NCBI GenBank assembly: GCA_965207885.1
Contig: OZ242311.1
Span: 6,164,722-6,228,721, forward strand
From: Candidatus Latescibacterota bacterium
GTDB lineage: Bacteria; Latescibacterota; UBA2968
Length of the DNA stretch: 64,000 bases
Direction of reading: 5' to 3'
Positions within the stretch are counted from its first letter, which is position 1; each line of letters opens with the position of its first letter. The notes beneath the pieces were generated by a model that saw only the letters and a program-made list of their open reading frames with translations, did no database searches and was not told the DNA's origin. The position numbers and the translations under genes are program-made. Positions 3,027 to 27,905 of the stretch are shown here, piece by piece.

Positions 3027-3074
3027 CCGGTTGTCCAAAAATTGAGACATGACAGGTAGAAGGATATATCACCC

Positions 3075-6000
3075 ATGATTTTAACTGACCTACCAGGCGA
3101 TTACGCCCGAAGAATCAAAAACATCCGGGGCGTCAAAGAACTGACCCAAACGCAGTTCGCGGAGTGCATTGGTGTGTCCTATGCCTCAGTCAACCGCTGG
3201 GAGAACGGACAGTCGCGTCCCAACAATCTGGCCTGGCAACGCATCTTAGAGCTGGAAGCGTACCCCCATGATGGCATTGATGAGGTACCGGCGATACCAG
3301 AAGTGAGATCAACATCTCCACTGAGCATGGACTTCTCCGCGAACCCGGACGCTATTTCAGCAGTCGCCGAAGCGCATCGCCTCACCTACGGACATCTTTT
3401 TAACTCTGCGTTTGCCGCTGAAACATCGTTGATCGACCCGCTACCTCATCAGCGCATCGCCGTGTACGAGCAAATGCTGCAACAGGCCCCCCTGCGATTC
3501 TTGCTCGCCGACGACGCGGGCGCCGGTAAAACGATCATGACGGGCCTGTACGTGCGCGAGATGTTGTCCCGCAGACTCATCCGCCGCGTGCTCATCGTCC
3601 CACCTGCTGGCCTGGTTGGCAACTGGGAGCGAGAATTGCGCACCCTGTTTCACCTGCCATTCCGCATCATCAGCGGCGCAGACGCGCGAACCGGCAATCC
3701 CTTCCTTGGAGCAGAGAGTGACCGGGCAATCGTCAGCATCGACACTCTGGCCGGGGAACGCATGTTCAACTACCTCAAAGACCCGCAGACTGACGCTTAT
3801 GACCTCGTCGTCTTCGACGAAGCGCACAAGCTATCCGCGAATCGCCAGCCGGACTTCAGGGTACGCAAAACGGATCGCTACAGGCTGGCAGAAGCCCTAT
3901 CTGGCGCTGAGGTAGATAGTGAAGACTGGAGACTCCCCTGGTCGGCTCAACATCTGCTATTGCTCACCGCAACGCCGCATATGGGAAAGGATCACCCCTA
4001 CTACTATCTATGGCGTCTGCTACTTCCCGACGCACTCTCTACCTATGATGCTTTCGAAGAGTTTCCCCAAGAATCTCGGCAGAAGCACTATATCCGCCGG
4101 ACCAAAGAAGAGATGGTCCACTTTGATGGTTCCCCGCTATATCCACAGCGAAACTGCGACACATTGGGCTACGCACTCTCACAAGGACAAGAAAGCGAAC
4201 AGGAACTCTACGACGAAACCACAGAATACATCCGGTATTATTACAACCGCGCTGGCATTTTGAACCGCTCCGCCGCCCGCCTGGCAATGAGCGTCTTCCA
4301 GCGCCGTCTCGCCAGTTCCACGTACGCCCTCCTGCGCTCCTTTGAGCGTCGCCATGAGAAACTCGAAGGACTGATTGACGACATACAGAACGGGCGTCTC
4401 TCCGAGGAACAACTCTTACGCCAACAACGACGCCTCGACACTCTCGACGATCTCTATGAAACCCGCACTGCCGATGAGGATGGAGAACAACAGGAGGGAT
4501 TCGAGAGCGATGCTCTGGGCGGCACCATCGCGGTCAATCTCAGCGAACTGGAGACAGAACGTCTCAGGGTCGAAGAACTGTTCAACAAGGCCCAGAACCT
4601 GTACGACACTGGCGAGGAATCCAAATTCGAGAAACTGCGCGAGGTGCTCAGTAATCCGAAATACACCGACGAAAAATTCATCATATTCACCGAGCACCGC
4701 GACACAGCGGAGTTCCTTGTGCGCCGTCTCGAAGGTCTCGGCTACACCGGTCAAGTCGCCCTGATCCACGGTGGCCTGCCGTACCAGGAAAGAGAGCGAC
4801 AGGTCGAGTTTTTCCGCCGACCAGCGACGGAAGGCGGGGCCAACTATCTGGTAGCTACCGACGCCGCTGGCGAAGGTATCAATCTGCAGTTCTGCTGGCT
4901 GATGGTCAACTACGACATCCCCTGGAATCCGGCGCGGCTCGAACAGCGGATGGGTCGTATCCATCGCTACGGACAAACGCACGATCCCGTAGTCATAATC
5001 AACTTGGTGTCCAGCGGCACGCGCGAGGGGCGGGTCTTGAAAACCCTTCTCGACAAGCTGGAGGCGATCCGACGACAACTCCAATCTGACAAGGTCTTCG
5101 ACGTCGTAGGCCGTCTGTTTGAAGAATACTCCATGAAGGACTATCTCGAACAAGCGATCACCGAAGACGCCGATACCCTTGCCGAACAACTGGAAGGCGA
5201 TCTCACTGAAGAGCAAGTCCGTGCTCTCGAACAAAAGGAGCGCATGATCTATGGGGAAGGTGGCGAAGTGCGTAGCCGATTACCCCATCTCAAAAAGGAA
5301 GCAGAGCAGGAAAACTACCGCCGGCTGCTGCCCGGATACGTGCGACGCCTCGTGGAAAAAGCCGCACCGCTACTCGACCTGCACATTGAAGGGGACCCCG
5401 AAGAAACCTTCACCCTGGTACCTGCTCGACCTCGTGCAGCTGATCCCCTGCTATCCGCACTTGAGTTGTATCCCGAAAGCGCGTGGAATCGACTGACAGT
5501 GTACAAGCCATTCACTCGCGAAAACGCGATCTGGCTACACCCCGGCGAGCCGGTATTCGACAGCATCTCTGCAACGATCCTGAATCGATTCAAACACGAG
5601 GGACTAAAAGGAGCCATATTCATCGATCCTTACGCAACCGAGCCGTATCTGTTCCACATCGCACTCATTTCCGTCGAACAACACAGCCAGGTCAACACAC
5701 AGGAGACCAATCTGCTATCTGCCCTCAATAATGACGAAACAGCCCCGAAACTGCTCGAATCGCGACTGGTCGGACTGCGCCAACTAAGCGATGGTACCGT
5801 AGAGGAGTGTGCGGTCGAGCATCTTCTTCTCCTCAGAGGTGCCCATGGCATTGCCCCGAGCCGGGTGCCACTTGCCACTTTTGCTCGCACCATGGCTCAG
5901 GATGCCGCCAATTTTATCCGCGATGAAGTGACCCAACGACTCGCACAAACACATCGACAGCGCATCCTCAACGATCTACCCTCACGCATGGACTTTGTCA

Positions 6001-6671
6001 ACCGCGGCTTCGACTTCCAGGCAGCCGAACTCGCAGCAGCCCGATCCCATCTCACCCAAAGGGCACGCACTGGTGATAGGCATGCCAATACAGAACTCAC
6101 CAGAGTCAAAGAACAACAACGAAGCCTGACGGATCTCCGCAACCGTCGCCTCGCCGAACTACAAACCGAACCGGACCTCATCCAGGCTGGTGAAATGGAA
6201 TTCCTCGTCCATGCCCTCGTGGTACCCGTCCAGGATACCGGGGAAACCGAGCGTTACGATGCCGATGTCGAAGCCATTGCCGTAAAAGTCGCCACCGCCT
6301 ACGAGGAAAGTTTTGGCGCTGAGGTCCAGGATGTCTCACGCCCCGAACTCGCACGGCGCGCGGGACTAACCGACTGGCCGGGCTTTGACCTCAGATCCCG
6401 CCATCCCGCAAATGACCAAAGCAACGCAGAAGAACGCGCCATCGAAGTCAAAGGCCGCGCTGGCTCCGGTAATATTCAAATGAGCGAAAACGAATGGGCC
6501 AGAGCCTGCAACCTGCGCGATGATTACTGGCTCTATGTCGTCTTCGACTGCGCCACGCCACGCCCACGCCTCGTGAGAGTGCGCGACCCATTTGGCAAAC
6601 TACTCGTCAGAACCCACGAATCTATTGCATTCACTATCACCTCAGGGGAACTGTTGGAAGCCGCCGAGTAA
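3075..6671 (+). CDS. SNF2-family helicase with N-terminal XRE HTH and C-terminal DUF3883-like PD-(D/E)XK nuclease
   Basis: LTQTQFAECIGVSYASVNRWENG (HTH); LADDAGAGKT, DEAH, LLTATP, GEGINLQ, QRMGRIHR; GFDLRS...IEVKG...SENE. Confidence 0.9.
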   Translation: MILTDLPGDYARRIKNIRGVKELTQTQFAECIGVSYASVNRWENGQSRPNNLAWQRILELEAYPHDGIDEVPAIPEVRSTSPLSMDFSANPDAISAVAEAHRLTYGHLFNSAFAAETSLIDPLPHQRIAVYEQMLQQAPLRFLLADDAGAGKTIMTGLYVREMLSRRLIRRVLIVPPAGLVGNWERELRTLFHLPFRIISGADARTGNPFLGAESDRAIVSIDTLAGERMFNYLKDPQTDAYDLVVFDEAHKLSANRQPDFRVRKTDRYRLAEALSGAEVDSEDWRLPWSAQHLLLLTATPHMGKDHPYYYLWRLLLPDALSTYDAFEEFPQESRQKHYIRRTKEEMVHFDGSPLYPQRNCDTLGYALSQGQESEQELYDETTEYIRYYYNRAGILNRSAARLAMSVFQRRLASSTYALLRSFERRHEKLEGLIDDIQNGRLSEEQLLRQQRRLDTLDDLYETRTADEDGEQQEGFESDALGGTIAVNLSELETERLRVEELFNKAQNLYDTGEESKFEKLREVLSNPKYTDEKFIIFTEHRDTAEFLVRRLEGLGYTGQVALIHGGLPYQERERQVEFFRRPATEGGANYLVATDAAGEGINLQFCWLMVNYDIPWNPARLEQRMGRIHRYGQTHDPVVIINLVSSGTREGRVLKTLLDKLEAIRRQLQSDKVFDVVGRLFEEYSMKDYLEQAITEDADTLAEQLEGDLTEEQVRALEQKERMIYGEGGEVRSRLPHLKKEAEQENYRRLLPGYVRRLVEKAAPLLDLHIEGDPEETFTLVPARPRAADPLLSALELYPESAWNRLTVYKPFTRENAIWLHPGEPVFDSISATILNRFKHEGLKGAIFIDPYATEPYLFHIALISVEQHSQVNTQETNLLSALNNDETAPKLLESRLVGLRQLSDGTVEECAVEHLLLLRGAHGIAPSRVPLATFARTMAQDAANFIRDEVTQRLAQTHRQRILNDLPSRMDFVNRGFDFQAAELAAARSHLTQRARTGDRHANTELTRVKEQQRSLTDLRNRRLAELQTEPDLIQAGEMEFLVHALVVPVQDTGETERYDADVEAIAVKVATAYEESFGAEVQDVSRPELARRAGLTDWPGFDLRSRHPANDQSNAEERAIEVKGRAGSGNIQMSENEWARACNLRDDYWLYVVFDCATPRPRLVRVRDPFGKLLVRTHESIAFTITSGELLEAAE

Positions 6672-6689: not shown

Positions 6690-6989
6690 ATGAAATTACG
6701 ACAGCCGCGCCATAGCAAAGAGGAATTCGCCCGACGTGGTCAGGCGATCTACGAACAACAAGTGAGGGCGCAAGTGGAAGAAGACAACTACGGCAGGATC
6801 GTAGCGATTGATATTGAAACAGGCGAATTCGAGGTAGCGGACGACCCACTTGCCGCCGCTGACCAACTTTTTGCGCGTTGTCCAGATGCACAGCCGTGGT
6901 TGATCCGCATCGGCCATCGTGCGCTATATCGGTTCGGGCAGCACAATCATGGGGTGGTGCCCAAGCCCGAACAGAGAGCCATTCTGTAG
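6690..6989 (+). CDS. Small conserved hypothetical protein (DUF5678-like)
   Basis: GRIVAIDIETGEFEVADD...LIRIG pattern; in operon position after the helicase. Confidence 0.6.
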   Translation: MKLRQPRHSKEEFARRGQAIYEQQVRAQVEEDNYGRIVAIDIETGEFEVADDPLAAADQLFARCPDAQPWLIRIGHRALYRFGQHNHGVVPKPEQRAIL

Positions 6990-7042: not shown

Positions 7043-8638
7043 ATGACGACTAACAGCAAATCTTCCAACGCAGCATCCCACAACGGCCAATCCCAGAACG
7101 GTACGGGCATGCCGATGGAATTACGTCTGCACATAACAGATCCAGATTTATGCGACGAACTGAGCGGGTACCAGGAGGGAATGGAGCGCGATAATTTTGC
7201 CCTCTCTGCGCTGAAGATAGGCGTCATCGCTCTGCGTCAGGCACAAGGCCGCATTGACGCTGAACAGATTCGGCAGGCGGGGGATACCATTATCCAGAAT
7301 ATGGCTCAGGCTCTCAACCAGCATCAGCGTGACGTAACCGATAAAATCGGCGATTTCCTCAAAGATTACTTTGATCCGGAAAGCGGGCGGTTCAACGAAA
7401 GAGTGCAGCAGTTAGTGGGAAATGACGGAGAACTGGAGCGGATCATTCGCCCCCTAATCGAAGGTGACGGCTCCCAGTTAGCCCAGACTCTCATCGCCCA
7501 TGTGGGCAAGGATAGCCCACTAATGCAAACCCTTAACCCCGACTCCGCCAGCGGCCTAATTGCCCAGCTTACACAATCCACTGAGACCACGCTGAGTGCG
7601 CAGAGCGAGCGGATACTCAGCGAGTTCTCGCAGGATAATAAAGACAGTGCCATTAACCGCCTGATTGTACAGTTGAAGGATAATCACGGAGAAGTTGGCA
7701 AGGCACTGGAAGAGCGCATCAGCGAGGTAGTCAGTGAGTTCTCGCTGGACAAGGAAGATTCAGCTCTTACCCGCCTGATGAACGGAGTTGAACAGGCGCA
7801 GCGTCAAATCAGCAGCGAGTTTGACCTGAACCAGGAAGATTCCGCGCTGGCCCGGATGCGCAAAGAATTGCTGGACAGCATCGAGACCCAACGTCAGACC
7901 AACGAGAAGTTCCAACGCGATGTAATCGAGAAGTTGGCTGAAATGACTGCCCGCAAACAGGAAGCCCAAAAAAGCACTCGCCACGGCCTGGAGTTCGAAT
8001 CTGCCGTTTTCGATTTTATCAACCAACAGAGCCAAAACGCTGGCGACATCGCCACCCACACTGGCAATACGACGGGGCAAATCAAGAACAATAAGAAGGG
8101 CGATATAGTCATTGAGCTCGGCCCCGAATCTGCCGCTGCCGGAGCCAAGATAGTGGTTGAAGCCAAAGAGGACGGTTCCTTTAACCTGACGAAAGCCCTA
8201 GAAGAACTGGAGGTTGCCCGAAAGAACCGAGACGCCGACATTGGCCTCTTTGTCTTCTCCAAGACCACCGCGCCGGAAGGACTGGATGCGTTCAACCGCT
8301 ACGGAAACAATATAGTGACCATCTGGGACAAAGATGACACTGCCAGTGACATCTTCCTTAATGTCGGGCTGTCAGTCTCCAAAGCCCTCTCCCTGCGCCC
8401 CAAGTCCCATAGCCAAGAAACAGGGGCTGATTTTGAGGCGATTGAAAAGGCGATCATAGAAATTGAACGGCAAACGGATGGACTTAACGAGATTAGGACT
8501 TCTGCCGAAACCATTCGCAATAGCAGCGACAAGATTCTTAACCGCGCCCGCATAATGCGCGAAGGGTTGGACAAGCAAACCGGCATCCTGAACGATAAGG
8601 TAGATAACTTACGCGAGGCGGTCGGCAGCGCGGTCTGA
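7043..8638 (+). CDS. Coiled-coil protein with C-terminal PD-(D/E)XK nuclease-like domain (RmuC-like architecture)
   Basis: GGAG SD before ATG 7043, in frame with ORF 6878; long helical region, then GLEFE...GDIVI...VVEAK. Confidence 0.65.
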   Translation: MTTNSKSSNAASHNGQSQNGTGMPMELRLHITDPDLCDELSGYQEGMERDNFALSALKIGVIALRQAQGRIDAEQIRQAGDTIIQNMAQALNQHQRDVTDKIGDFLKDYFDPESGRFNERVQQLVGNDGELERIIRPLIEGDGSQLAQTLIAHVGKDSPLMQTLNPDSASGLIAQLTQSTETTLSAQSERILSEFSQDNKDSAINRLIVQLKDNHGEVGKALEERISEVVSEFSLDKEDSALTRLMNGVEQAQRQISSEFDLNQEDSALARMRKELLDSIETQRQTNEKFQRDVIEKLAEMTARKQEAQKSTRHGLEFESAVFDFINQQSQNAGDIATHTGNTTGQIKNNKKGDIVIELGPESAAAGAKIVVEAKEDGSFNLTKALEELEVARKNRDADIGLFVFSKTTAPEGLDAFNRYGNNIVTIWDKDDTASDIFLNVGLSVSKALSLRPKSHSQETGADFEAIEKAIIEIERQTDGLNEIRTSAETIRNSSDKILNRARIMREGLDKQTGILNDKVDNLREAVGSAV

Positions 8639-8660: not shown

Positions 8661-8764
8661 TGCACAGCCGTGGTTAGTGTGCATCGGGCACCGTGCGCTA
8701 CATCGGTTCGGGCAGCACAATCATGGCGTGGTGCCTAACCCCAAACAGAGGCCCTTTCCGTAGA
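8661..8764 (+). repeat. Direct repeat B copy 2 (non-coding remnant)
   Basis: Aligns to 6887-6990. Confidence 0.9.
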
Positions 8765-8775
8765 GGATACTGATA

Positions 8776-9810
8776 ATGCTTGATTTGAACGTCCCAGCTA
8801 TCGAAAAACTTGTAGATTATACCGCCAGCGGAATAGGAGCAATTGCCGGGCCGATGTTGGCTCTCTGGAAGGCTTCCAGAGAAGGAAAGGCAAGAGCCAT
8901 TGCCGCTAAGGCAGACGCAGAAGTGCGTAACATTGAAGCGGAATCAGACGCTCGATCATTGCAGATCATTGCCGACGCGCAGGCCCAGGCCCGGCGGGCC
9001 ATTACTAAACCGATTGAATCAGGGCAAAGCAGGGTGGAAATCACTCGGGGCGACATTACTCAGCGAATCGAATTCCAAGAACGCAAACGTCTCGCAAATG
9101 TCAAATCGGTTATAGAGGATGCCGCTGCTGAGCTTGGCGACAAGGAGGTTCCCGACCAGGAACCCGACCCAGATTGGACGGCGCGTTTTTTCGATTCCGT
9201 TCAGGACGTATCCGCCGAAGAAATGCAAAAAATCTGGTCGAAAATCCTTGCAGGGGAAGTGGAGACACCCGGCAGAACTTCGTTGCGCACCCTCTCTGTT
9301 CTCAGAGATATGTCGCAGAAGGACGCAAAGATGTTTTCTGAAACAATGCGATACAAAATTGGTAATTTCATTCACTATGAAAGTTACATATTCTCATCCA
9401 ACTTGGCACGCGGAATGCATAAGTATGATTCGTTCGGCTTTTTGCCGGAATTTTTCGTCGTTATTCAAGACTGGGGATTATTGCGCGGCACATATGACCC
9501 ATCTCCCCAATTGATATTAGATGATAAAGGAATAAAAATAACAACAAATTGTAATCAAATTTTGGTTATTGAAGGAAGTTCGGGGAGAAAGATTGAACTC
9601 CAAGATACCCTTACCATGGCTGTAACTCCTCCGGCAATAGAATTATCAACGTTCTGCGAAATGAAACCAGATTTCAAGTATCTGGGTTGTTTTGCAGAAC
9701 TTCTTAAATGCCAAAACTGCACGCTCAAGATAGCCCCCAGGAAGATAACTCCTGCTGGAGATATTGCTTTTGACCCAGATGACCTTCACATAGTCGAGCC
9801 AGCATCGTGA
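8776..9810 (+). CDS. DUF2806-like protein
   Basis: DPDWTARFFDSVQDVSAEEMQKIWSKILAGEVETPGRTSLRTL motif; GAGGA SD. Confidence 0.75.
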   Translation: MLDLNVPAIEKLVDYTASGIGAIAGPMLALWKASREGKARAIAAKADAEVRNIEAESDARSLQIIADAQAQARRAITKPIESGQSRVEITRGDITQRIEFQERKRLANVKSVIEDAAAELGDKEVPDQEPDPDWTARFFDSVQDVSAEEMQKIWSKILAGEVETPGRTSLRTLSVLRDMSQKDAKMFSETMRYKIGNFIHYESYIFSSNLARGMHKYDSFGFLPEFFVVIQDWGLLRGTYDPSPQLILDDKGIKITTNCNQILVIEGSSGRKIELQDTLTMAVTPPAIELSTFCEMKPDFKYLGCFAELLKCQNCTLKIAPRKITPAGDIAFDPDDLHIVEPAS

Positions 9811-11778: not shown

Positions 11779-11870
11779 ACAACAAACGCTTACGCCTTTC
11801 CGCTCAAGCAGGTCTCGCTGGACTTCGTTTACAGGAAGAATGTGCGGCATGAGCACATCCCGACTCTACA
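11775..11870 (+). pseudogene. Decayed copy of the 5' end of the DUF1156 methyltransferase gene (repeat C; partner 13866-13969)
   Basis: ATG changed to ATA, 8-bp deletion, and a 32-nt perfect match CGCCTTTCCGCTCAAGCAGGTCTCGCTGGACT. Confidence 0.9.
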
Positions 11871-18730: not shown

Positions 18731-18782
18731 AGCCGCCCGCGACAATATCCAGGCACCGGGGCAGAAACAACTCCAATTCGGA
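18731..18782 (+). repeat. Decayed copy of the methyltransferase 3' end (repeat D; partner 16964-17015)
   Basis: 46/52 identical, ungapped. Confidence 0.85.
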
Positions 18783-20885: not shown

Positions 20886-23800
20886 ATGACGCGAAAACTC
20901 CCCCATAAACCCTGGCACGAAGTCGTGCAACTACGCGACGACCTGAAGACCGGCGAACTCTCGCTGGCCGTATTTGCCGCTGACCTGTACGACGTGGTCA
21001 TGCAAAAGGGCCAACGACCAGTTTACGAAGATCCCGACAAGTTCTTCGCCCTCACCTTCCCCACCTACAACCTGCGGGAACTGGTCAAAGATGTGTGTCT
21101 CCGCCTGGCCGGTAAGACCGACAAGGCGTATCGAAAACTCTCCGTCAACTACGGCGGCGGCAAAACCCATACCCTCATCGCCCTCAGACATCTGGCACAC
21201 GACCCGGACGCGCTGCCCGATCTGCCAGCAGTCCGGGAGTTTGAGGCCCATATTGGCTTCAAGCCGCCAAAAGCACGGATAGCGGCACTGTGCTTCGACA
21301 AGATCGACCTGGAAAAAGGCGTCGAAACAACCGGACCCGATGGCACCATTAGAATGCTCAAGCACCCCTGGAGCATTCTCGCCTTTCAATTGGCGGGGGC
21401 TGACGGCCTCAAGCTCATCCACGCCGAGGGCAAAGACGAAGAGCGCGAAACACCACCCGCGGAACCGTTGGTTGTAGAACTGCTATCGAGACCACAAGAA
21501 GACGATCTCTCAACCCTGATTCTCCTCGACGAAGTATTGATGTATATCCGCACAAAAGCGGAAAATGACCCGGACTGGCGTGGGCGGCTAATGAGCTTCT
21601 TCCAATACCTCACGCAAGCCGTTGTAAAGGTAGATCGCTGCGCCATGGTAGCCTCACTACTCGCCTCCGATCCAGGAAAACATGACAGCCTGGGAAACGA
21701 ATTATTTCAAGACATATCCGACGTCTTTGGCCGCCAGATGGAAGAAGACGCCAGTCCCGTAAGCAAAGAGGACGTGGCAGAAGTTCTGCGACGCCGTTTC
21801 TTCAAACCCGAGTCCATTAGCGATCAGGGCATTTTCCGTCCCCATGTGACCTCAGTAGTGGGTAGCATCGCCGCACTCGACGAACAGACCAAAAAAGAGC
21901 AAGGAACCGCAGAAGAACGCTATATAGATAGCTATCCCTTTCATCCGGACCTCACCGAAATCTTCTACACTCGCTGGACCCAAATCGAAGGATTCCAGCG
22001 CACCCGCGGCATCCTGCGAACATTTGCCATTGCCCTGCGCGATGCGGAAAAGTGGGACACAAGCCCGCTGGTGGGGCCAAATGTGTTTTTGAACGACCCG
22101 GAAAAGACCGACCTATCCGAAGCCGCAGGAGAACTCGCATCCTTTGCCAGTGTTGACACAGAAACAGGCAGTCATCATGAATGGGGTCCCATTCTCGAAG
22201 GCGAACTTGGCAAAGCGCGTGAGATCCAATCCGAAGCGACGGGTCTGCGCCACCGGGAAATCGAACAAGCAGTCATTTCAGTATTTCTGAGTTCTCAGCC
22301 AATCGGTCAAAAGGCATCGACACAAGAGTTGCTCGTACTGCTCGGAGCAGCCAACCCGGACAAGATAGAATTGGAAAAAGCCCTGCGTCGCTGGACCGAA
22401 CTGTCCTGGTTTTTAGACGAAGTGGAGATCTCTGCAGGAGAACCCGACTCAAGCGACCAGTTGCCGAGGGCATGGCGACTGGGCAATCGCCCCAACCTGC
22501 GCCAGATGCACCACGACGCCTGTAATATGCGCGTACCAGACACACTCGTAAAATCACAGGTCATCGATGCCATCGAAAAACTCAGGGAACTTACCACGGG
22601 CGCATCAGCGGCCGGGGCAAGAGTTCACACCTTGCCGGAACGCCCGCAGGATATCGCAGACGATGGCGAGTTTCACTACGCAGTCCTCGGTCCAAAAGCA
22701 GCCTCAGAATCCGGCAAACCCAGCGCGGAAGTGAAGCGGTTCATAAACGAGACGACTGCGCCTGACCGTCCCCGGGTCTATCGCAACGCTATCGTCCTCG
22801 CCGTTCCCTCCAGAGATGGTCTCGATGCCGTGCACACGCGGGTTCGAGAGTATCTGGGTTGGCAAGAAGTCCGCGAACAACTCAGCGGCCAGCAGATCGA
22901 TCCCATTCGTCAACAGATGCTCGCCGATGAGATAAGAACGGCAAGCAAACGCATCCCGGATGCGATCAGGCAGGCATACTCCATAGTCGTGACCGTCAAC
23001 GAAAGCAATGATATCCATGCTTTCAAAATCGTGATAACCGACGAGCCTTTATTCACGATCATCAAAGCCGACAAGCGATCTCGCATCCAGGAAACTGCGA
23101 TCAGCGCAGAGGCGATGATGCCGGGCGGTCCCTACGACTTGTGGCGAGAAGACGAGCAATCCCGCCGGGTTAAGGATCTGGTTGGTGCTTTTGCGCAGTT
23201 CCCAAAACTACCCAAGATGCTACGATCAAAGGAGATTCTGGATACGGTCGTACAAGGGGTCCAACAGGGAATCTGGGTGGCACAGATCGTACGACCAGAC
23301 CGCACAACAAAGACATTCTGGCAAACCACTATTGATGAGCCTGCTCTCAAAGACTCCAGTCTGGAGGTATGGCTGCCTGAATTTGCCACACTGAGCGAAC
23401 TCGCGCCCGATTTGTTGGCGTATCAGAAGCTCCCGGGACTCTGGTCGGGCGAAGAGATTAGTGTCCAGAAGGTGTACGACTACTTCGCTGGTGGTCACAC
23501 CGTGAGCGTGCCCAAAGAGGGCTACGAAGAAACACTCACCATCCCGAAATGCGAATCAGCAGATGTCGAGACCGCGATTTCACAAGCCGTAGAACAAGGA
23601 CTGGTGTGGTTGACCAGCGGACCGGCATCTATCCTAAAGGAGCCTGTCCCTGCTGGCGTGCTCAGTGCCTCTGCGATATTGCGATCCCCACCCGAGCGGA
23701 TCGAGGTTGCCGAACTGATGGGCGATTCGATCCCAGATGCGTGGAAAAACGATAAGACAAACGCCCTCGCCATTGCCACTGCGCTCTCCGCCCAGCGAGA

Positions 23801-24200
23801 CATGACCCTCCCCTGGCACACAGTAAAAACGGCGATAGATGATGGTATCCGCGCGCGATGGATCGAACTCAGCGACAGCAACATCACATGGCCCTGCGAC
23901 ATCAATGGTGCCCAGCATGTGGTCCTTCAGATTCCTCAAAACGAAAAAATTCGCGAGGATGAAAAGGACCGCTACCAGCCGACGCCATCGGGAATGCTTA
24001 TTGCAGAAGCTGCCCTGGAAGCCAACGGCATCCAGGATTTGGCGGATCAGATTCCGGACATAGCTAAAGCAGCGGTCGGCAGTAGCCTTAAGTTTAACGT
24101 CCGTATCGAGTTCAGCGGAGAAACCACGCCCGATCCAGAGCAAGTACAAAAGATCAACGAGTTGCTCTCTGATGTGTCCGATGACCTAAAGCTCACTTGA
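20886..24200 (+). CDS. DUF499-type AAA+ ATPase
   Basis: KPWHEVVQLRDD...FAADL N-terminus, NYGGGKTH, LLDEV, SYPFHP, FQRTRGILR; GAGG SD. Confidence 0.9.
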   Translation: MTRKLPHKPWHEVVQLRDDLKTGELSLAVFAADLYDVVMQKGQRPVYEDPDKFFALTFPTYNLRELVKDVCLRLAGKTDKAYRKLSVNYGGGKTHTLIALRHLAHDPDALPDLPAVREFEAHIGFKPPKARIAALCFDKIDLEKGVETTGPDGTIRMLKHPWSILAFQLAGADGLKLIHAEGKDEERETPPAEPLVVELLSRPQEDDLSTLILLDEVLMYIRTKAENDPDWRGRLMSFFQYLTQAVVKVDRCAMVASLLASDPGKHDSLGNELFQDISDVFGRQMEEDASPVSKEDVAEVLRRRFFKPESISDQGIFRPHVTSVVGSIAALDEQTKKEQGTAEERYIDSYPFHPDLTEIFYTRWTQIEGFQRTRGILRTFAIALRDAEKWDTSPLVGPNVFLNDPEKTDLSEAAGELASFASVDTETGSHHEWGPILEGELGKAREIQSEATGLRHREIEQAVISVFLSSQPIGQKASTQELLVLLGAANPDKIELEKALRRWTELSWFLDEVEISAGEPDSSDQLPRAWRLGNRPNLRQMHHDACNMRVPDTLVKSQVIDAIEKLRELTTGASAAGARVHTLPERPQDIADDGEFHYAVLGPKAASESGKPSAEVKRFINETTAPDRPRVYRNAIVLAVPSRDGLDAVHTRVREYLGWQEVREQLSGQQIDPIRQQMLADEIRTASKRIPDAIRQAYSIVVTVNESNDIHAFKIVITDEPLFTIIKADKRSRIQETAISAEAMMPGGPYDLWREDEQSRRVKDLVGAFAQFPKLPKMLRSKEILDTVVQGVQQGIWVAQIVRPDRTTKTFWQTTIDEPALKDSSLEVWLPEFATLSELAPDLLAYQKLPGLWSGEEISVQKVYDYFAGGHTVSVPKEGYEETLTIPKCESADVETAISQAVEQGLVWLTSGPASILKEPVPAGVLSASAILRSPPERIEVAELMGDSIPDAWKNDKTNALAIATALSAQRDMTLPWHTVKTAIDDGIRARWIELSDSNITWPCDINGAQHVVLQIPQNEKIREDEKDRYQPTPSGMLIAEAALEANGIQDLADQIPDIAKAAVGSSLKFNVRIEFSGETTPDPEQVQKINELLSDVSDDLKLT

Positions 24201-24233: not shown

Positions 24234-24268
24234 CAAAACAGAAGCATATCAACCATGAAAATTACTGA
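24234..24268 (+). repeat. Decayed copy of the RBS and start of the racemase-family gene (repeat E; partner 26760-26794)
   Basis: 30/35 identical; both read MKITD. Confidence 0.75.
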
Positions 24269-24304
24269 TAAGGAAATTTAGACACAAAATCGAAAGGACT
24301 GAGA

Positions 24305-24592
24305 ATGGTACTCAATCTCAAAGAAGCTGGAAGAAGGTTCCAAGAACTGGTTCAATCTCTCAGATCTTCTAACGAAGCATGTGAAGTACGAAATGAAAAG
24401 GGGCAGATGGTGGCGGTTGTATTGCCTGTAGAACGCTATCGACTCTATCAGCAGGAGTGGGAAAAAGACTTCGTTGCGGTTGACCGGATCCGGGATAAGA
24501 TGAGGGACAATGATCCCGATTACGTCGAGACACAGATTGTGAAAGCTGTTTCTGAGGTCAAGGCCAAATCAGGAGATGCCAGTGCCACCTGA
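24305..24592 (+). CDS. Phd/YefM-like antitoxin
   Basis: LNLKEAGRRFQELV...VAVVLPVERY; directly upstream of a PIN gene. Confidence 0.65.
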   Translation: MVLNLKEAGRRFQELVQSLRSSNEACEVRNEKGQMVAVVLPVERYRLYQQEWEKDFVAVDRIRDKMRDNDPDYVETQIVKAVSEVKAKSGDASAT

Positions 24593-25022
24593 GCGTATGA
24601 TACGAGTCGTCCTTGATGTCAATGTAATCGTGAGTTCCATAATCGCGCCTTCCGGTACCCCTGGTCGTATCTTCGATGCCTGGAAACGCCAGCAACTCTA
24701 TGTCATCACCTCGCCAGTGATCATTGCAAAAACGCTGGAAGTCATTCGACGACCATCCATTCAGGAAAATTTTTCTATCAGTGAGACTGATATTCAAGCT
24801 ATCAAAACCCTTTTGGAGCGACGAACTATTCTCACGCCTCACAACCTGAAACTGAAGGTTGTTGAACGAGATCCAGAGGACGACAACATCATTATTGCTG
24901 CAGTTGAAGGTAAAGCCGACTGCATTGTTTCAGGTGACCGCCATCTGCAAGATCTGGATTCGTACGAAGACATTCCGATTCTGTCACCATCCGAATTTGT
25001 CGTCCGTTATAATATTCAGTGA
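24576..25022 (+). CDS. PIN-family toxin (PIN_3 type)
   Basis: VVLDVNVIVS, RDPEDDNII, IVSGDRHL. Confidence 0.85.
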   Translation: MPVPPERMIRVVLDVNVIVSSIIAPSGTPGRIFDAWKRQQLYVITSPVIIAKTLEVIRRPSIQENFSISETDIQAIKTLLERRTILTPHNLKLKVVERDPEDDNIIIAAVEGKADCIVSGDRHLQDLDSYEDIPILSPSEFVVRYNIQ

Positions 25023-25118
25023 TGTTCTCTCACAACTCCTGTCATAAAAAGAGGTGGAGGTCATGGAGTCCCACGTTGCGCTACAGCCCAGGACCTCTCG
25101 CCGCCAGGGAGTCTCAAC

Positions 25119-26720
25119 ATGACGACAACAGCCATGCGTTTCTTCAACACTGCCGGCCCCATCGATGCGGAGATACACTACCACATCCCGCCCCTGGCGC
25201 GGCTCGATGTCGATGATCTTCTGCTGCTCATCCAGCAGCGGAAGTACTTCGTCCTGCACGCGCCTCGCCAGACCGGCAAGACCTCCGCGCTCCTCGCGCT
25301 GAAAGACGACCTCAATGCCAGCGGCGAGTTCCGCTGTGCGTACGTCAACGTCGAAATCGGACAAGCGGCACGGGAAGATGTGGCCGCGGCCATGCGGGCG
25401 ATTCTCAGCGCGCTGGGTCGTGCTGCACGCCACACGCTGGACGACTTGTTCGTCTCTCAAATCTGGCCCGGCATTCTCGATGGTGCCGGTCCCAACGACG
25501 CGCTGGGGGAGACCCTTGCACGCTGGGCCGAGTCGGACGCCAGACCGCTGGTACTCATGATTGACGAGATCGACGCGCTGATCGGCGATACCCTGCTGTC
25601 CGTGCTGCGACAATTGCGCGCGGGCTACCCGGAGCGTCCGCGACGATTTCCACAGAGCGTGATCCTGTGCGGTGTGCGCGATGTGCGCGATTACCGCATC
25701 CAATCTTCCGCCGAGAATGCCATCATCGCCGGGGGCAGCGCGTTCAATATCCGCGCCGAGTCCCTGCGGCTGGGAGACTTCTCCCGCGACGACGTCGAAT
25801 CGCTGCTGGCGCAACACACCGCAGAGACCGGACAGGCACTCGCCGAGGAGGCACGTGCCGCGATCTGGGAACTGACTCAGGGCCAGCCATGGCTGGTCAA
25901 CGCGCTGGCCTACGAAGCCTGCTTCAAGAACAAGGCCGGACGCGACCATAGCCAGTCAATCACCGCCGACGCCATCCAGGACGCCCGCGAACAGTTGATC
26001 CGCCGACGCGAAACACACCTGGACCAACTCACCGACAAGCTCCAGGAGGAACGGGTGCGCCGGGTAATCGAACCACTACTAAAAGGATCAGATGAAGCTG
26101 GCTCATTCGCCGACGACGACCTGCAGTACGTACGCGACCTGGGCCTCGTGCGCACCGACAATCCAATTGCCATTGCCAACCCAATTTATCGCGAGGTAAT
26201 CCCGCGCGACCTCACCTACACCACCCAGGCGGGCTTTCACCATGACCCGACCTGGTACATTGATGCTAACGGCACCCTGCAAGTAGGCAAGTTGCTGGCC
26301 GCGTTCCAGGCGTTTTTCCGCGAGCACTCCGAGCACTGGATAGAGCGGTTCCAGTACAAGGAAGCCGGTCCGCAGTTGTTGCTACAGGCATTTTTGCAGC
26401 GCATCATCAACAGCGGTGGGCGGATTGAACGCGAGTATGGCCTGGGTCGCAGGCGCACGGATTTGCTGGTAATATGGCCGGTGGGCGGGGATTCCAGCAG
26501 AATACAGAAGGTCGTCATTGAGTGCAAGCTACTGCACCGGAGTCTGGAGCAGACATTGCGCGACGGGCTTGAGCAAACACGCGCCTACATGGACCGCTGC
26601 GCGACGGTGGAAGGACACCTCGTGCTCTTTGACCGCACCGAGGATAAGTCATGGGACGACAAGGTGTATCGCCGCGATGAAACCGAAGGCGGCGCACCGG
26701 TCACGGTGTGGGGAATGTGA
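25119..26720 (+). CDS. AAA-like ATPase with C-terminal PD-(D/E)XK nuclease-like domain
   Basis: FFNTAGP, HAPRQTGKTS, MIDEID; EREYGLGRRRTDL...VIECK. GC-rich relative to neighbours. Confidence 0.85.
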   Translation: MTTTAMRFFNTAGPIDAEIHYHIPPLARLDVDDLLLLIQQRKYFVLHAPRQTGKTSALLALKDDLNASGEFRCAYVNVEIGQAAREDVAAAMRAILSALGRAARHTLDDLFVSQIWPGILDGAGPNDALGETLARWAESDARPLVLMIDEIDALIGDTLLSVLRQLRAGYPERPRRFPQSVILCGVRDVRDYRIQSSAENAIIAGGSAFNIRAESLRLGDFSRDDVESLLAQHTAETGQALAEEARAAIWELTQGQPWLVNALAYEACFKNKAGRDHSQSITADAIQDAREQLIRRRETHLDQLTDKLQEERVRRVIEPLLKGSDEAGSFADDDLQYVRDLGLVRTDNPIAIANPIYREVIPRDLTYTTQAGFHHDPTWYIDANGTLQVGKLLAAFQAFFREHSEHWIERFQYKEAGPQLLLQAFLQRIINSGGRIEREYGLGRRRTDLLVIWPVGGDSSRIQKVVIECKLLHRSLEQTLRDGLEQTRAYMDRCATVEGHLVLFDRTEDKSWDDKVYRRDETEGGAPVTVWGM

Positions 26721-26780
26721 GGGCACTGATGGAAACTGCTGAGTAACTCAGAAAGAGATCAAAACAGGAGCACATCACCC

Positions 26781-27905
26781 ATGAAAATCACCGACGTGGA
26801 AACTATCGTAATCCAAAACATCCAGCCCTATCGCGGGGGAAGATACTGGCTCTTTGTCCAGCTCATCACCGACGAAGGCATCGTCGGACTGGGCGAGCGA
26901 CCCTCGGGAAATGCCACTAATCTGGACTCCCAAATCAGCCTCATCAAAAACCTGTGTCAGCAATTCGCCATCGGCACAAGCCCCTTTGACATCGAAAGCC
27001 TGTGGCAGCGCATCTTTGCGTCCCGGCACGACTATCGCCATCCCGGCCTCGACGCAACACCCGCCTTGAGCGCCATTGAAATGGCGTGTTGGGACATCGT
27101 CGGCAAAGCATTGAACCAGCCCATCTACAATCTACTCGGCGGCAGAGTCCACGACAAACTCAGGGCTTATGCCTACATGCCGACCGACGGCATCTGGGAA
27201 AATCCAGAACGCGCAGGTGAGATCGCAACCCGTCTGGTCGCAGACGGAAACACCGCCTGCAAATTCGACCCCTTCCACCCGATCTTTCCCAACCCGCGCG
27301 ACTTCCCACTCAAAACCATCCGCCACGTCGCCAAAATATTTAAAAGCATCCGGGATGCAGTCGGCGACGAATTGGAAATCGGCATCGGCACCCACGGACA
27401 ATTCAGCACATCTGGCGCAATCCGCGTGGCAAAAGAACTGGAAGAATTTAGCCCCTTCTGGTTTGAAGAACCCGTCCCTCCGGAAAACATCGACGAAATG
27501 GCCCGCGTCGCCGCCCACACCAGCATCCCAATCGCCACAGGCGAACGACTCGTCACCAAATACGAATTTGCCGAACTCCTTAAAAAACAGGCCGCGCAGA
27601 TCCTTCAATTAGACGTGGGACAATGTGGCGGGATATTGGAATCCAAAAAAATCGCCAGCATGGCCGAAGCCCACTACGCCCTCATCGCGCCCCACATGTA
27701 TTGCGGACCCGTCGCCGCAGCCGCCGCGGTGCAACTCGACACATGCTCGCCGAACTTTCTGATCCAGGAATTCAACGCCAACGACCTCCACAGCGAAATA
27801 TTCGTAGAACCAATCCAATTTGAAAGCGGCTATATCACCCCGCCAACAGGACCTGGTTTAGGGATTGAACTCGACGAATCAATGGTTGCCAAACACCGCG
27901 CATAA
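26781..27905 (+). CDS. Mandelate racemase/muconate lactonizing enzyme family (galactonate dehydratase-like)
   Basis: MKITDVE, SAIEMACWDIVGK, WFEEP, IATGE; AGGAG SD. Confidence 0.9.
   Translation: MKITDVETIVIQNIQPYRGGRYWLFVQLITDEGIVGLGERPSGNATNLDSQISLIKNLCQQFAIGTSPFDIESLWQRIFASRHDYRHPGLDATPALSAIEMACWDIVGKALNQPIYNLLGGRVHDKLRAYAYMPTDGIWENPERAGEIATRLVADGNTACKFDPFHPIFPNPRDFPLKTIRHVAKIFKSIRDAVGDELEIGIGTHGQFSTSGAIRVAKELEEFSPFWFEEPVPPENIDEMARVAAHTSIPIATGERLVTKYEFAELLKKQAAQILQLDVGQCGGILESKKIASMAEAHYALIAPHMYCGPVAAAAAVQLDTCSPNFLIQEFNANDLHSEIFVEPIQFESGYITPPTGPGLGIELDESMVAKHRA

Follow-up and report, generated by a model that had tools for sequence, protein, structure and literature searches.

Gene Content of the Variable Hotspot

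The analyzed window, i.e., a 64,000-nt stretch of contig OZ242311.1 of a Candidatus Latescibacterota genome, contains a variable hotspot, defined as the interval between gene A (1–588, its 5' end cut by the window edge) and a gene of the mandelate racemase/enolase family (26781–27905; Pfam MR_MLE_C, E-value 4.2e-63), which houses an Hma defence operon. All features of this hotspot described below lie on the forward strand unless indicated otherwise. Both flanks are conserved: gene A, which matched no Pfam family, shows 88.8–96.3% identity in 13 of 16 loci of relatives (in G002 and G015 it lies just upstream of the fetched stretch, and in L015 of G012 it was not seen), while the racemase is 93–97% identical in 16 relatives. 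In 7 of the 16 relatives examined the site is empty, and gene A is directly followed by the racemase. The first-pass annotation had placed the start of the island at 3060; it should be moved to 589.

The left block begins with a short copy (hereafter, a stub) of the racemase 3' end (802–839), followed by an insertion sequence with tnpB (861–2065, reverse strand; ORF 905–2029; Pfam OrfB_IS605, Cas12f1-like_TNB, and HTH_OrfB_IS605). This element, which has about 10 copies in the genome (77–96% identity), sits inside the stub-bearing block and to the left of the island as previously delimited; segments 802–839 and 2147–2224 together correspond to the native racemase-downstream sequence of G002, G012, and G019. 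The next cargo block, located between gene A and HmaA (2217–2881), encodes a putative antitoxin (2217–2471) and a PIN toxin (2468–2881; PIN domain, E-value 9.7e-15), and it is also present in G010 and in a paralogous locus, locus 2. It is followed by a remnant of about 24 bp of the gene A 3' end (2946–2969), identified in an alignment with gene A and the 120-bp stub of locus 2, and truncated at the onset of the HmaA promoter region.

The backbone of the island is the Hma operon. HmaA (3075–6671; PADLOC HmaA PDLC00659, E-value 1.8e-172) is an SNF2-type helicase with N-terminal HTH and C-terminal NOV_C domains recognized by Pfam, HmaB (13866–17030; PADLOC HmaB PDLC00661, E-value 2.3e-122; Pfam DUF1156) is a DUF1156 DNA methyltransferase, and HmaC (20886–24200; PADLOC HmaC PDLC00662, E-value 7.1e-74) is a DUF499 AAA+ ATPase. 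The gaps between these genes, of 7.2 kb and 3.9 kb, are filled by other defence genes.

Within the first gap, HmaA is followed by a small accessory ORF of 99 aa (6690–6989), which had no family match in Pfam or PADLOC and which is also found downstream of HmaA in other phyla and downstream of the racemase in five relatives. Then there are g586 (7043–8638; 531 aa from the ATG at 7043; a weak Mrr_cat match, E-value 0.002, below the cut-off), found in G019 and G012 with 93–94% identity, a stub of the small-ORF 3' end (8661–8767), a gene for a DUF2806 protein (8776–9810; Pfam DUF2806, E-value 7.7e-31), an OLD-family ATPase-TOPRIM nuclease gene (9862–11778; Pfam AAA_21 and OLD-like_TOPRIM; PADLOC GajA/Old), a stub of the HmaB 5' start whose start codon is dead (11775–11870; ATA), and a gene for a fused AriA-AriB-like, PARIS-type ATPase (11952–13775; PADLOC AriAB PDLC02981, E-value 2e-59), which was absent from the matches listed for the other 20 genomes of the genus. 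The second gap contains a pentapeptide-repeat protein gene (17177–18730; Pfam Pentapeptide, E-value 1.8e-48), a displaced HmaB 3' end with its native downstream gene still attached (18731–18782), and a block (18799–20866) encoding an HTH protein (18799–19050), a PDC-M07A-type ABC ATPase (19047–20306), and its 187-aa partner (20303–20866). The pentapeptide gene is unique to the source genome: its best relative among 168 genomes of the phylum has 45% identity, and no close relative was found among metagenome contigs.

To the right of HmaC, a stub comprising the racemase upstream region and the first 22 coding bases (24234–24276) precedes a putative toxin-antitoxin (TA) pair (24305–25022; a 95-aa protein and a PIN_3 toxin, E-value 8.4e-18) and a block starting at 25051 with the gene of a 533-aa AAA_22 ATPase (25119–26720; Pfam), a member of a large paralogous family with many paralogs at 67–75% in the genus. 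The island ends with a stub of the HmaA 3' end, including its stop codon (26721–26756).

Among the main ORFs of 3060–26794 no recombinase family match was obtained, so the claim that this region lacks an integrase holds by family searches. The genome itself is poor in recombinases: a six-frame search of its 6.23 Mb revealed four tyrosine recombinase (PF00589) matches, the nearest about 349 kb away, and no match to the serine recombinase family PF00239. Moreover, positions 1–42,000 contain no tRNA gene.

Direct Repeats at Cargo Borders

Six direct-repeat pairs were found within positions 1–28,000, and every one of them consists of a gene end and a short stub at a cargo border. In order of score, these are the pairs of the small-ORF 3' end (6887–6993/8661–8767; 107 nt, 85%, 109 bits), the HmaB 5' start (11775–11870/13866–13969; 104 nt, 76%, 76.8 bits, with a core of 78 nt and 81%), the HmaB 3' end (16964–17015/18731–18782; 52 nt, 88%, 59.7 bits), the racemase 3' end (802–839/27841–27878; 38 nt, 87%, 42.5 bits), the racemase start (24234–24276/26760–26802; 43 nt, 81%, 41.1 bits), and the HmaA 3' end (6646–6681/26721–26756; 36 nt, 86%, 39.7 bits). 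The best direct repeat in 60 dinucleotide-preserving shuffles of the same region reached 34.0 bits (mean 28.5, sd 2.0), and the strongest real match after the six pairs scored 32.6 bits. Five pairs had been reported by the first-pass annotation, and all of them are present where it had placed them, at the gene ends it had named; the racemase 3' end pair, whose stub lies to the left of the island it had delimited, was absent from its list. With the gene A remnant (2946–2969) as a seventh stub, there are at least seven distinct repeat sequences, and they have no consensus in common.

In the whole genome, 58 isolated low-copy local pairs of this kind were identified (0.93 per 100 kb), and the 24-kb island holds three pairs at the genome-wide threshold versus 0.22 expected (Poisson P = 0.0016). 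Twenty of the 58 combine a gene end with an intergenic copy, and at most of 10 sampled sites such pairs exactly flank one or two genes, including non-defence genes. A further pair near 38 kb (37969–38049/38788–38869; 83 nt, 75%, E-value 8.6e-8) had been taken as a sign that the same process is not confined to the island. The pair is real, but its copies are not gene ends: they are an intergenic hairpin-bearing element flanking a Gp49/HigB-like gene (38075–38398) and an HTH gene (38395–38688), which form a separate small hotspot (37969–38869). In G019 and G005 the segment 36709–38846 is missing.

Comparison with Related Genomes

Alignment of the locus with that of relatives revealed that presence/absence breakpoints coincide with the repeats, as expected by the first-pass annotation. 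In G002, G015, and G012, HmaB is joined to the HTH gene through a single copy of the 52-nt repeat and the pentapeptide gene is missing; the stub at 18731–18782 together with the HTH gene reproduces the uninterrupted HmaB-HTH junction of G002 and G015. HmaC abuts the racemase in G015 and G019, which are devoid of the TA pair and the 533-aa block, and the window retains this HmaC-racemase junction up to position +22 of the racemase before the TA/533-aa block begins. The 533-aa block is present in G002, G009, G012, G013, and G020, and in G002 and G012 no TA pair separates it from HmaC.

The HmaB-start stub marks a further breakpoint. In G019 a 1219-aa gene joins an intact HmaB, and the stub and the cargo behind it are missing, while G002 and G015 show a G019-like upstream context followed by a 105-bp HmaB stub, other cargo, and HmaB. 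The stubs of the window, G002, and G015 share the position of an internal 6–8-nt deletion as well as their right edge, and in these three genomes the cargo differs on both sides of the stub. The OLD stop codon overlaps the stub as ATAA, and the junction is laid out as in native OLD-HmaB operons.

Several stubs are old and common to relatives. In four aligned genomes (the window, G002, G012, and G009) and, by colinearity, in G013, the 533-aa gene is followed by the HmaA-end stub, although G009 and G013 are Hma-less; in G002 and G012 a second HmaA-end stub lies upstream of this gene. This scar thus travels with its cargo, and the expectation that relatives would not carry the same scars with identical cargo is borne out only in part.

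In the pairs designated D4, D7, D9, and D8, alleles present in other species account for 4/6, 3/8, 2/5, and 3/5 of the differences between stub and gene copy, respectively, i.e., for 12 of 24. This includes 4 of 6 differences in the 52-nt HmaB-end stub, 3 of 8 in the racemase-start stub (the other 5 being private), and 3 of 5, matching racemases of other species, in the stub at 802–839. The private share (2/6, 5/8, 3/5, and 2/5) is decay, and in none of these four pairs did the gene copy have a private difference. The members of a pair therefore resemble alleles of different lineages rather than a single sequence that has decayed. Later homologous replacement of the gene copy would leave an equal pattern, which weakens the shared-allele test. 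The closest relative shifts block by block: g586 is 93.9% identical to that of G019, the 3' part of HmaB 92.3% to G012, and the HTH-to-HmaC block 93.7% to G015.

Distant Hma Loci

The order HmaA, HmaB, HmaC was kept in nearly all of 77 distant loci, and the cargo types of the island recur there as native neighbors of Hma genes. Relatives of the DUF2806 gene are located directly upstream of HmaB in 10 of the 77 loci and those of OLD (61–68%) in two (L052 and L092), the PDC-M07A-type ATPase and the 187-aa partner occur between HmaB and HmaC in 22 and 18 loci, respectively, and in L096 a 533-aa gene directly follows HmaA. Each stub thus joins two recognizable operon variants, and across phyla the spaces between HmaA, HmaB, and HmaC act like slots for cargo.

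In these loci a nearby stub was found for 6 of 324 Hma end segments versus 1 of 486 interior segments (one-sided Fisher P = 0.018). At locus L109 a stub of the HmaB start is present three times, in each case exactly at the boundary of two cargo genes; the cargo there comprises a Schlafen/AlbA_2 protein, NYN/HEC-09, and Gabija. Only some 10% of the distant Hma loci contain stubs, though most hold cargo, and therefore they are not required sites; the description of the island as an integron-like array is overstated.

Proposed Origin of the Stubs

We propose, with a probability of roughly 0.55, that variants of the Hma operon were merged through a crossover in a shared gene and an illegitimate join, the redundant gene end being displaced as a stub. 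The island would be chimeric, derived from no fewer than four or five variants of a single locus, whose scaffold consists of gene A, the HmaA-HmaB-HmaC operon, and the racemase, and whose lineages differ in the defence genes of the gaps. At the first end of an incoming segment, an ordinary homologous crossover would take place inside a shared scaffold gene, while at the other end, in non-shared cargo, an illegitimate join would fall shortly inside the recipient's copy of the scaffold gene, i.e., homology-facilitated illegitimate recombination acting as a displacement mechanism. The segment would supply an intact scaffold gene and its own cargo, and the recipient's redundant gene end (36–150 bp) would be displaced as a stub, with its old neighbor still attached. 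Repeated rounds would gather cargo from several variants around one intact Hma gene set, and deletions would add or trim stubs. Only short, diverged stubs would survive, presumably because long repeats would delete the intervening cargo. The stubs are scars and not att sites, although perhaps they are reused as homology patches.

The first-pass annotation had suggested that cargo arrives from homologous loci by integrase-free recombination anchored in conserved gene ends. The integrase-free character and the copies with alleles of other lineages were upheld, but the anchors would be whole conserved genes of the operon scaffold, with the ends as leftovers. Plain deletion also yields stubs (G020). 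No sharp step in identity to G015 and G002 was found at the 52-nt stub (94.7% before and 93.3% after it, climbing to 97–99% about 400 bp further), so the long-anchor prediction is not demonstrated. For none of the junctions unique to the source genome could a donor arrangement be found, hence no microhomology is readable at the illegitimate joins. As for DNA entry, the presence of ComEC and DprA in the genome hints at natural transformation; both are also found in many non-competent bacteria. Two further points speak against the proposal: the whole window is part of a duplicated terminal segment of its contig, and the titles of the nearest loci name metagenome assemblies.

Circular intermediates, a model proposed for rhs by Jackson et al. 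(PMC2935791), are a possible but tentative explanation: a Campbell-type crossover would create tandem scaffolds later deleted to stubs, or a small circle of stub and cargo would enter through 36–150 bp of homology. G002 and G012 resemble tandem versions (gene A, the full Hma operon, 36 bp of the gene A end, then about 65 bp of the HmaA end, the 533-aa gene, the HmaA-end stub, and the racemase), locus 2 and G010 hold racemase-end and gene-A-end stubs in tandem-unit order, scaffold genes are deleted to stubs in G020, and the absence of a sharp allele step at the 52-nt stub is consistent with entry by way of short homology. Yet neither the 16 relatives nor the 77 distant loci contained a tandem intermediate with two full scaffolds, L073 alone having a split or double HmaB match. 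Moreover, more steps are needed per stub, and 36–52 bp at 86–88% identity is a poor substrate for RecA-type recombination. It is rather improbable that the stubs are long target-site duplications created at insertion (e.g., by staggered breaks filled around captured DNA), of which the non-coding copy decays. The exact flanking of cargo by two copies, here and at most sampled sites of the genome, would fit this, as would the differences private to stubs and a divergence of 12–24%, which by a rough estimate could arise neutrally since the species splits. However, half of the 24 differences are alleles of other species, the nearest relatives of stub-attached blocks differ from those of the gene copy, the HmaB-start stub stands between different cargo in three genomes, and Ku was not found in the genome; we also know of no bacterial mechanism producing 36–150-bp duplications at insertion.

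An integron- or island-like element integrated site-specifically by trans-acting recombinases, for which the gene-end copies would be the attL/attR-like sites, is close to refuted. Similar diverged direct repeats are indeed left by islands that insert at the 3' or 5' end of a gene and supply a substitute for it, such as those targeting tRNA genes or dusA, but the diversity of the repeats, the scarcity of recombinase genes, the nearest of them far from the island, the lack of tRNA genes in positions 1–42,000, and the stub-free state of most cargo-bearing Hma loci all speak against it. It is equally hard to believe that the stub junctions are chimeric joins of strain variants made during metagenome assembly. 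The titles of the nearest loci do name metagenome-assembled genomes, the window lies in a 73.5-kb terminal contig segment that duplicates 66–129 kb of the same contig (93–98.6%) and stops inside a repeat gene, and three junctions are unique to this contig (the small-ORF stub, the pentapeptide block, and the AriAB-like block). Nevertheless, four of the stubs, those of the HmaB start, the HmaA end, the racemase end, and the gene A end, have identical edges in genomes of other species that were assembled independently, the junctions lie outside shared repeats at which an assembler could switch paths, and the same kind of stub occurs in six distant loci.

Relation to Known Systems

As outlined by Payne et al. 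2021 (PMC8565338), Hma is a three-gene operon that often co-occurs with Septu type I; the three core proteins of the island match its PADLOC models, but here the genes are set apart by the two cargo-filled gaps. The geometry proposed for the island is known from Rhs, CDI, and T6SS loci (PMC5361080, PMC2935791). In these displacement arrays of polymorphic toxin loci, which comprise rhs C-terminal tips (Jackson et al. 2009, PMC2935791), orphan modules of CDI, and effector-immunity arrays of T6SS (Kirchberger et al. 2017, PMC5361080), incoming DNA is likewise anchored in a conserved gene and the resident 3' part is moved downstream, the displaced pieces keep a partial conserved copy as direct repeats of varying length, and arrays grow by repetition with no integrase, the proposed mechanisms being homology-facilitated illegitimate recombination or circular intermediates. 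Orphans, as described in PMC3967940, can recombine back via retained homology. Unlike in those arrays, the scaffold of the island is a multi-gene defence operon with displaced 5' and 3' ends of several genes, what builds up is a series of unrelated whole defence systems and not variant tips or immunity genes belonging to one protein, the stubs are short, non-coding, and without a function of their own, and the signature also flanks non-defence genes elsewhere in the genome.

Homology-facilitated illegitimate recombination itself (de Vries and Wackernagel 2002; Prudhomme et al. 2002; Meier and Wackernagel 2003, as cited in PMC5361080) shares with our proposal one anchor, one illegitimate join, additive foreign DNA, and the lack of mobile-element genes; in that account it is experimental, in transformable model species, whereas here it is deduced from scars alone. 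Minimal mobile elements of Neisseria and hotspots flanked by core genes, an idea also cited in PMC13617665, likewise hold cargo between conserved genes, without mobility genes, and exchange it by flanking homology, and the occurrence of the gene A-racemase site in both an empty and a filled form agrees with this idea; such elements replace cargo scarlessly, whereas the island adds cargo and stubs of scaffold genes mark each addition. An integron resembles the island in that promoter-less or compact cassettes are stacked in order at a single locus and bordered by short repeats. In contrast to it, the island has no IntI, attI, or attC, its repeats are consensus-free and derived from neighboring genes, and most cargo insertions in loci of its type leave no repeat. 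Under the proposed reading, seams with leftover gene ends, such as those described here, show how defence islands can grow without an integrase.

Hma operon and its cargo genes

The island located between two conserved hotspot flanks, i.e., gene A (1-588) and the racemase gene (26781-27905), has an Hma defence system as its backbone. All three PADLOC components of this system were matched: HmaA, an SNF2/DEAD helicase (3075-6671; PDLC00659, E = 1.8e-172, residues 85-1187), HmaB, a DUF1156 DNA methyltransferase (13866-17030; PDLC00661, E = 2.3e-122; Pfam DUF1156, E = 2.9e-18), and HmaC, a DUF499 AAA+ ATPase (20886-24200; PDLC00662, E = 7.1e-74). In PMC8565338, Hma is described as a candidate defence system. 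The three genes are encoded on one strand and in the usual order, yet they are not adjacent, being separated by 7.2 kb and 3.9 kb of other genes.

The HmaA-HmaB gap contains a 99-aa ORF, a 531-aa gene of no assigned function, a DUF2806 gene, an OLD-family nuclease, and a fused AriAB-like (PARIS-type) protein, and the HmaB-HmaC gap a pentapeptide-repeat protein, an HTH protein, a PDC-M07A-type ABC ATPase, and its 187-aa partner (ORFs in the scripted analyses were simple longest-ORF calls). A putative PIN_3 toxin-antitoxin pair and then a 533-aa AAA_22 ATPase are placed 3' of HmaC, and a TnpB insertion sequence (IS) and a PIN pair are found to the left of HmaA. The cargo is composed of unrelated defence genes and not of alternative modules of an anchor protein.

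Within the 531-aa cargo gene, three to four imperfect repeats of 42-52 nt, spaced by 81-114 nt, were found at 7614-7854, suggesting a repeated protein motif. The 533-aa AAA_22 ATPase gene (25119-26720; 62.5% G+C, with a long antisense ORF at 24984-25949) is a member of an extensive family of paralogs that share 67-75% nucleotide identity, with several to about 19 copies in a genome. Such numerous paralogs might indicate a mobile element; however, there is no transposase domain, and in one relative (G016) five copies are arranged in tandem, so it was treated as a gene family.

Direct repeats at the cargo borders

Six direct-repeat pairs stand out within positions 1-28,000 of the window, with scores of 109, 76.8, 59.7, 42.5, 41.1, and 39.7 bits, while the next-best real match reached 32.6 bits and 60 dinucleotide-preserving shuffles of the same region gave a maximum of 34.0 and a mean of 28.5 bits. 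All five pairs listed in the first-pass annotation are present and exceed the shuffle maximum. The sixth pair, a copy of the racemase 3' end (802-839 / 27841-27878), lies to the left of the island as delimited there (3060-26794) and was absent from that list, and about 24 bp remain of a seventh stub, which copies the 3' end of gene A (2946-2969).

In each pair one copy is a true gene start or end; the second, a stub, is short (24-107 bp) and non-coding, and its start codon is absent or dead. The seven repeats are unrelated in sequence, in agreement with the earlier observation that no consensus is common to the pairs, and each is derived from an adjoining gene. Intact anchor genes accompanied by a partial copy beside older cargo were recognized for HmaB (5' and 3'), HmaA (3'), the racemase (5' and 3'), and gene A (3'). 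A further pair near 38 kb, which had been taken as a sign of the same process outside the island, is genuine and encloses a Gp49/HigB-HTH gene pair; it consists, however, of an intergenic hairpin element and not of a gene end.

The locus in related genomes

The genus sample comprised 21 species genomes, including the one analyzed here (G000). The region upstream of the racemase was compared in the 16 genomes with a close racemase match; four others without one (G001, G011, G016, and G018) were left out. The site between gene A and the racemase is empty in seven of the 16 (G003-G008 and G014), holds the 533-aa gene alone in two (G009 and G013) and an IS/PIN block in one (G010), and carries other cargo in G017, a decayed island in G020, and an Hma operon with varying cargo in the remaining four (G002, G012, G015, and G019).

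The presence/absence breakpoints among these relatives fall at the stubs, and forms without the newest insertion exist in all four genomes with the operon. In G002, G012, and G015 the pentapeptide gene is absent and the 52-nt HmaB 3'-end repeat is single-copy; the 52-nt stub and HTH gene of the window correspond to the HmaB-HTH junction of these genomes, and the copy within the HmaB gene of the window has a novel 15-nt C-terminal extension. HmaC adjoins the racemase in G015 and G019, and the window retains this junction up to racemase coding base 22, where the toxin-antitoxin and 533-aa block follows. A 1219-aa gene adjoins intact HmaB in G019, and in G002 and G015 the same upstream context is followed by a 105-bp HmaB stub, a HEC-01-type ATPase cassette, and HmaB. 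Coincidence of variable-region breakpoints with the repeats, proposed as a check of the first-pass annotation, was thus confirmed at the pentapeptide, HmaC-racemase, and HmaB-start junctions.

In three relatives, a conserved protein of 1215-1219 aa is encoded directly upstream of HmaB or an HmaB stub (L016:2975-6634, L024:4484-8131, and L025:8531-12190). It matched no Pfam family, the one match obtained (Cas3b-like) was marginal, and a role as a fourth component associated with Hma is possible. The HmaA-HmaB gap of G012 contains, adjoining HmaB upstream, a TIR-APAZ protein and a short prokaryotic Argonaute (L029:3914-6779, minus strand; PADLOC pAgo_I, E = 2.1e-168). A second variable spot was noticed a few kb upstream of gene A (G000:C1:72153-72473, L021:5972-7358, and L028:6591-7941), where relatives of the HTH, ATPase, and PIN_3 genes of the window are present in different combinations, e.g., with an HTH gene joined to a PIN_3 start.

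The assembly requires a comment. The last 73.5 kb of the contig (G000:C1:6155264-6228721), holding the whole window, are colinear with a segment near the contig start (66,234-129,101; 93-98.6% identity). The terminal segment stops at the contig end inside a giant repeat gene, with no continuation across the contig junction. The second copy has the same flanks, lacks the Hma island, and also differs by insertions at 72-80 kb and 95-104.5 kb. The segment is either a true segmental duplication or the haplotype of a second strain appended by the assembler; in the latter case, the whole island would be a presence/absence polymorphism between close strains. Three junctions are known from this contig alone and are provisional; the other stubs are also present in assemblies made independently. 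The giant gene (44000-64000) consists of repeat units of about 681 bp arranged in tandem (82-92% identical among copies), with a second series of about 340 bp from 61 kb.

Age and origin of the stubs

Several stubs are old and common to relatives. An HmaA-end stub is located 3' of the 533-aa gene in all four aligned genomes (the window, G002, G009, and G012) and, by colinearity, also in G013; G009 and G013 carry no Hma. In G002 and G012 a second HmaA-end stub and a 36-bp gene A stub lie upstream of the 533-aa gene. Moreover, in the window, G002, and G015 the stubs of the HmaB start have an internal deletion at one place (8 and 6 nt) and an identical right edge, including about 10 non-HmaB bases, and so derive from a single event; the surrounding cargo differs on both sides. 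According to the first-pass annotation, identical scars with identical cargo in relatives would speak against cargo accretion. This holds in part, since the scars are often old and inherited, but the breakpoints coincide with the repeats.

Part of the differences between stub and gene correspond to states in the genes of other species (4/6 in the 52-nt HmaB 3'-end pair, 3/8 in the racemase-start pair, 2/5 in the HmaA 3'-end pair, and 3/5 in the racemase 3'-end pair); the remaining ones are private to the stub, and none is private to the gene copy. This fits the joining of alleles of different lineages followed by stub decay; a later replacement of the gene copy, though less favoured, could give the same pattern. 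Deletions also produce stubs: in G020 the sequence from about +30 of HmaB through the end of HmaC is deleted, and the ATPase cassette is kept, attached to the tail of the HmaB-start stub.

Search for recombinases and mobile agents

The claim that the island has no integrase is upheld by searches on a wider scale. No island ORF matched recombinase family profiles, and a six-frame genome search revealed only four PF00589 matches (none in the window, the nearest about 349 kb off) and no PF00239 match genome-wide. Scans of positions 1-42,000 found neither tRNA genes nor Rfam families. ComEC and DprA are present in the genome and Ku was not found, which allows, but does not prove, DNA uptake.

TnpB was considered as the agent and rejected, since it belongs to a separate 1.2-kb IS with about 10 copies, which interrupts one block and leaves seven different repeats unexplained. 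This TnpB-only IS is located at 861-2065 (genomic copies 77-96% identical), and a 25-nt direct repeat (92%) was found near its ends (872-896 and 2108-2132).

Hma loci beyond the genus

Relatives of HmaB (53-93% identity) were examined with 10-kb flanks at 77 loci of metagenome-assembled genomes from many phyla (from the best 80 of 195 matches), the closest of which are titled Candidatus Latescibacterota. The order HmaA-gap-HmaB-gap-HmaC is kept, the length of either gap ranges between about 30 bp and about 7 kb, and in many loci the Hma genes are likewise split by other genes. DUF2806 lies directly upstream of HmaB in 10 loci and OLD in two (L052 and L092; 61-68% identity), the HmaB-HmaC gap holds the ATPase in 22 loci and the 187-aa partner in 18, and immediately 3' of HmaA there is the small ORF (e.g., L042 and L069) or, in L096, the 533-aa gene. 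As the cargo types of the window are regular gap residents elsewhere, each of its stubs joins two recognizable operon variants, and the cargo would come from other variants of one Hma operon, found in several phyla.

A stub census was performed with 150-nt segments of full-length HmaA, HmaB, and HmaC, and any copy outside the gene was recorded if it had ≥30 nt, ≥75% identity, and E < 1e-4. Outside the genus type, copies were found for 6/324 start or end segments (L042, L043, L060, L072, L081, and L109) and 1/486 interior segments (one-sided Fisher P = 0.018, indicative only, because kinship among the loci was not controlled); HmaB starts with a stub occur in three of the five genus-type loci. 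Within L109 there are three HmaB-start stubs (two at 86-88% identity, the third, from a separate search, at 70.5%), each exactly between two cargo genes, in the series ParA-like ATPase, Schlafen/AlbA_2, NYN/HEC-09, then Gabija and HmaB. Stubs are therefore recurrent yet occasional, and most cargo-bearing Hma loci have none. Interior HmaB "repeats" of L058, L073, and L075 (59-77%) were dismissed as compositional or paralogous matches (with a 78% identity cut on HmaB repeats, every remaining match is at gene ends), and a low-complexity AT-rich match in L099 was not counted.

Gene-end copies elsewhere in the genome

The whole genome was scanned for isolated low-copy local direct pairs (40-300 nt, 70-96% identity, 0.3-20 kb apart), which gave 58 pairs. 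Three of them are in the island, a density roughly 13-fold that of the genome as a whole (Poisson P = 0.0016), and 20 combine a gene end with an intergenic copy, according to a rough ORF-based classification. At most of ten sampled sites the repeats lie precisely at the two borders of one gene or two, and the enclosed genes include a Schlafen/AlbA_2 gene and such non-defence genes as a DUF3500 gene of a metabolic cluster, a patatin-Omp85 gene, and beta-lactamase-family and histidine phosphatase genes. The clearest non-defence case comes from a MacB-type ABC transporter operon: an HD-domain gene (L125:3035-3861; G000:C1:395034-395860) separates its ATPase and permease genes, and is bordered by an 82-nt repeat (92.7%) copying the 3' end of the ATPase gene. 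Such pairs at non-defence sites point to a general route by which this genome gains genes, with a concentration in the Hma island.

A REP/MITE-like element of about 105 bp is present in inverted and direct copies (27909-28019, 30101-30155, and 39168-39284), here directly 3' of the racemase stop codon, with many copies, up to 94% identical, in this and related genomes.

Proposed mechanism

The best-supported explanation is that variants of the locus merged through one homologous crossover, placed in a scaffold gene common to both, together with a single illegitimate join. The join would lie just within the recipient's copy of a scaffold gene; the incoming intact gene would take over and the displaced end of the recipient gene would become the stub. 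Only short, diverged stubs would persist, as longer repeats would presumably delete the intervening cargo. The core of the first-pass annotation, i.e., accretion without an integrase, by recombination between homologous loci that leaves diverged duplicates, is retained, but the recombination would be anchored in the genes of the shared Hma scaffold and not in the gene ends.

The stubs could also have arisen through circular intermediates or tandem merging with subsequent deletion. The tandem-looking layout of G002, G012, and the second copy of the locus on the contig would fit this version, and so would the lack of a sharp allele step at the 52-nt stub against either G015 or G002. Identity along the window is mosaic. 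On the other hand, no tandem intermediate was seen in the 16 and 77 loci, and the anchored illegitimate join is more economical, needing one step. For the pentapeptide block, the genus-search matches listed include no donor outside G000, metagenome contigs gave 36-44% matches to the repeat region only (two loci), and the best match in 168 phylum genomes was 45% over part of the protein. Searches for a donor of the joins seen in G000 alone gave none, so that no junction microhomology can be read there.

The mechanism belongs to a known kind, that of displacement arrays. PMC5361080 proposes such a displacement model for T6SS effector-immunity arrays and cites transformation experiments on homology-facilitated illegitimate recombination as well as Rhs and CDI orphan arrays. 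In PMC2935791 (Jackson et al.), direct repeats of part of the core, variable in length, are reported 3' of rhs genes, with preference for circular intermediates. As in those arrays, an intact anchor gene is accompanied by displaced partial copies, and relatives show forms without the newest insertion; unlike there, where toxin tips or immunity genes are displaced, the pieces here are non-coding stubs. An integrative island targeting a gene end would differ in having an integrase of its own and a single att pair bounding it; here there are several nested pairs of differing sequence, with no recombinase and no tRNA. The comparison with an integron, made in the first-pass annotation, describes the accretion of cargo without an integrase, but the analogy is loose: there is no IntI beside the array, no attC-type sites with a shared structure at the cassette borders, and the repeats are unrelated. 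To our knowledge, the setting is new, with a defence operon as a cross-phyla scaffold, stubs from both ends of several genes, and spread into ordinary operons; a literature search (supplementary files being outside its scope) found no description of it.

It is conceivable, though rather unlikely, that the stubs work as portable homology patches, with which a neighbouring cassette could enter any Hma operon by double crossover, whatever stands upstream. On the left of the HmaB-start stub of the window, OLD is joined as in native OLD-HmaB operons, with ATAA one base from the coupled stop/start ATGA, and the right edge is that of the G002 and G015 stubs, to the left of which stands the 1219-aa gene. 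These mixed edges are most simply explained by a crossover within the stub, which hints at reuse of the stub as homology. The three-stub array of L109 also fits this possibility. If it were true, Hma operons would be a recombinase-free, integron-like cassette scaffold common to phyla.

Significance

The locus constitutes a readable record of how systems are gained and stacked in defence islands without mobile-element genes, as each seam retains a piece of a former gene, so that the order and sources of the additions may be reconstructed. It suggests that a multi-gene defence operon can serve as a landing scaffold for systems of the PARIS-like, OLD, Septu-like, Gabija, and short-Argonaute types. 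Integrase-free gene gain could be searched for by its signature of short, diverged gene-end copies. The findings also suggest that displacement, a process known from toxin loci, has a wider range and, in this genome, extends to ordinary metabolic and transporter operons.
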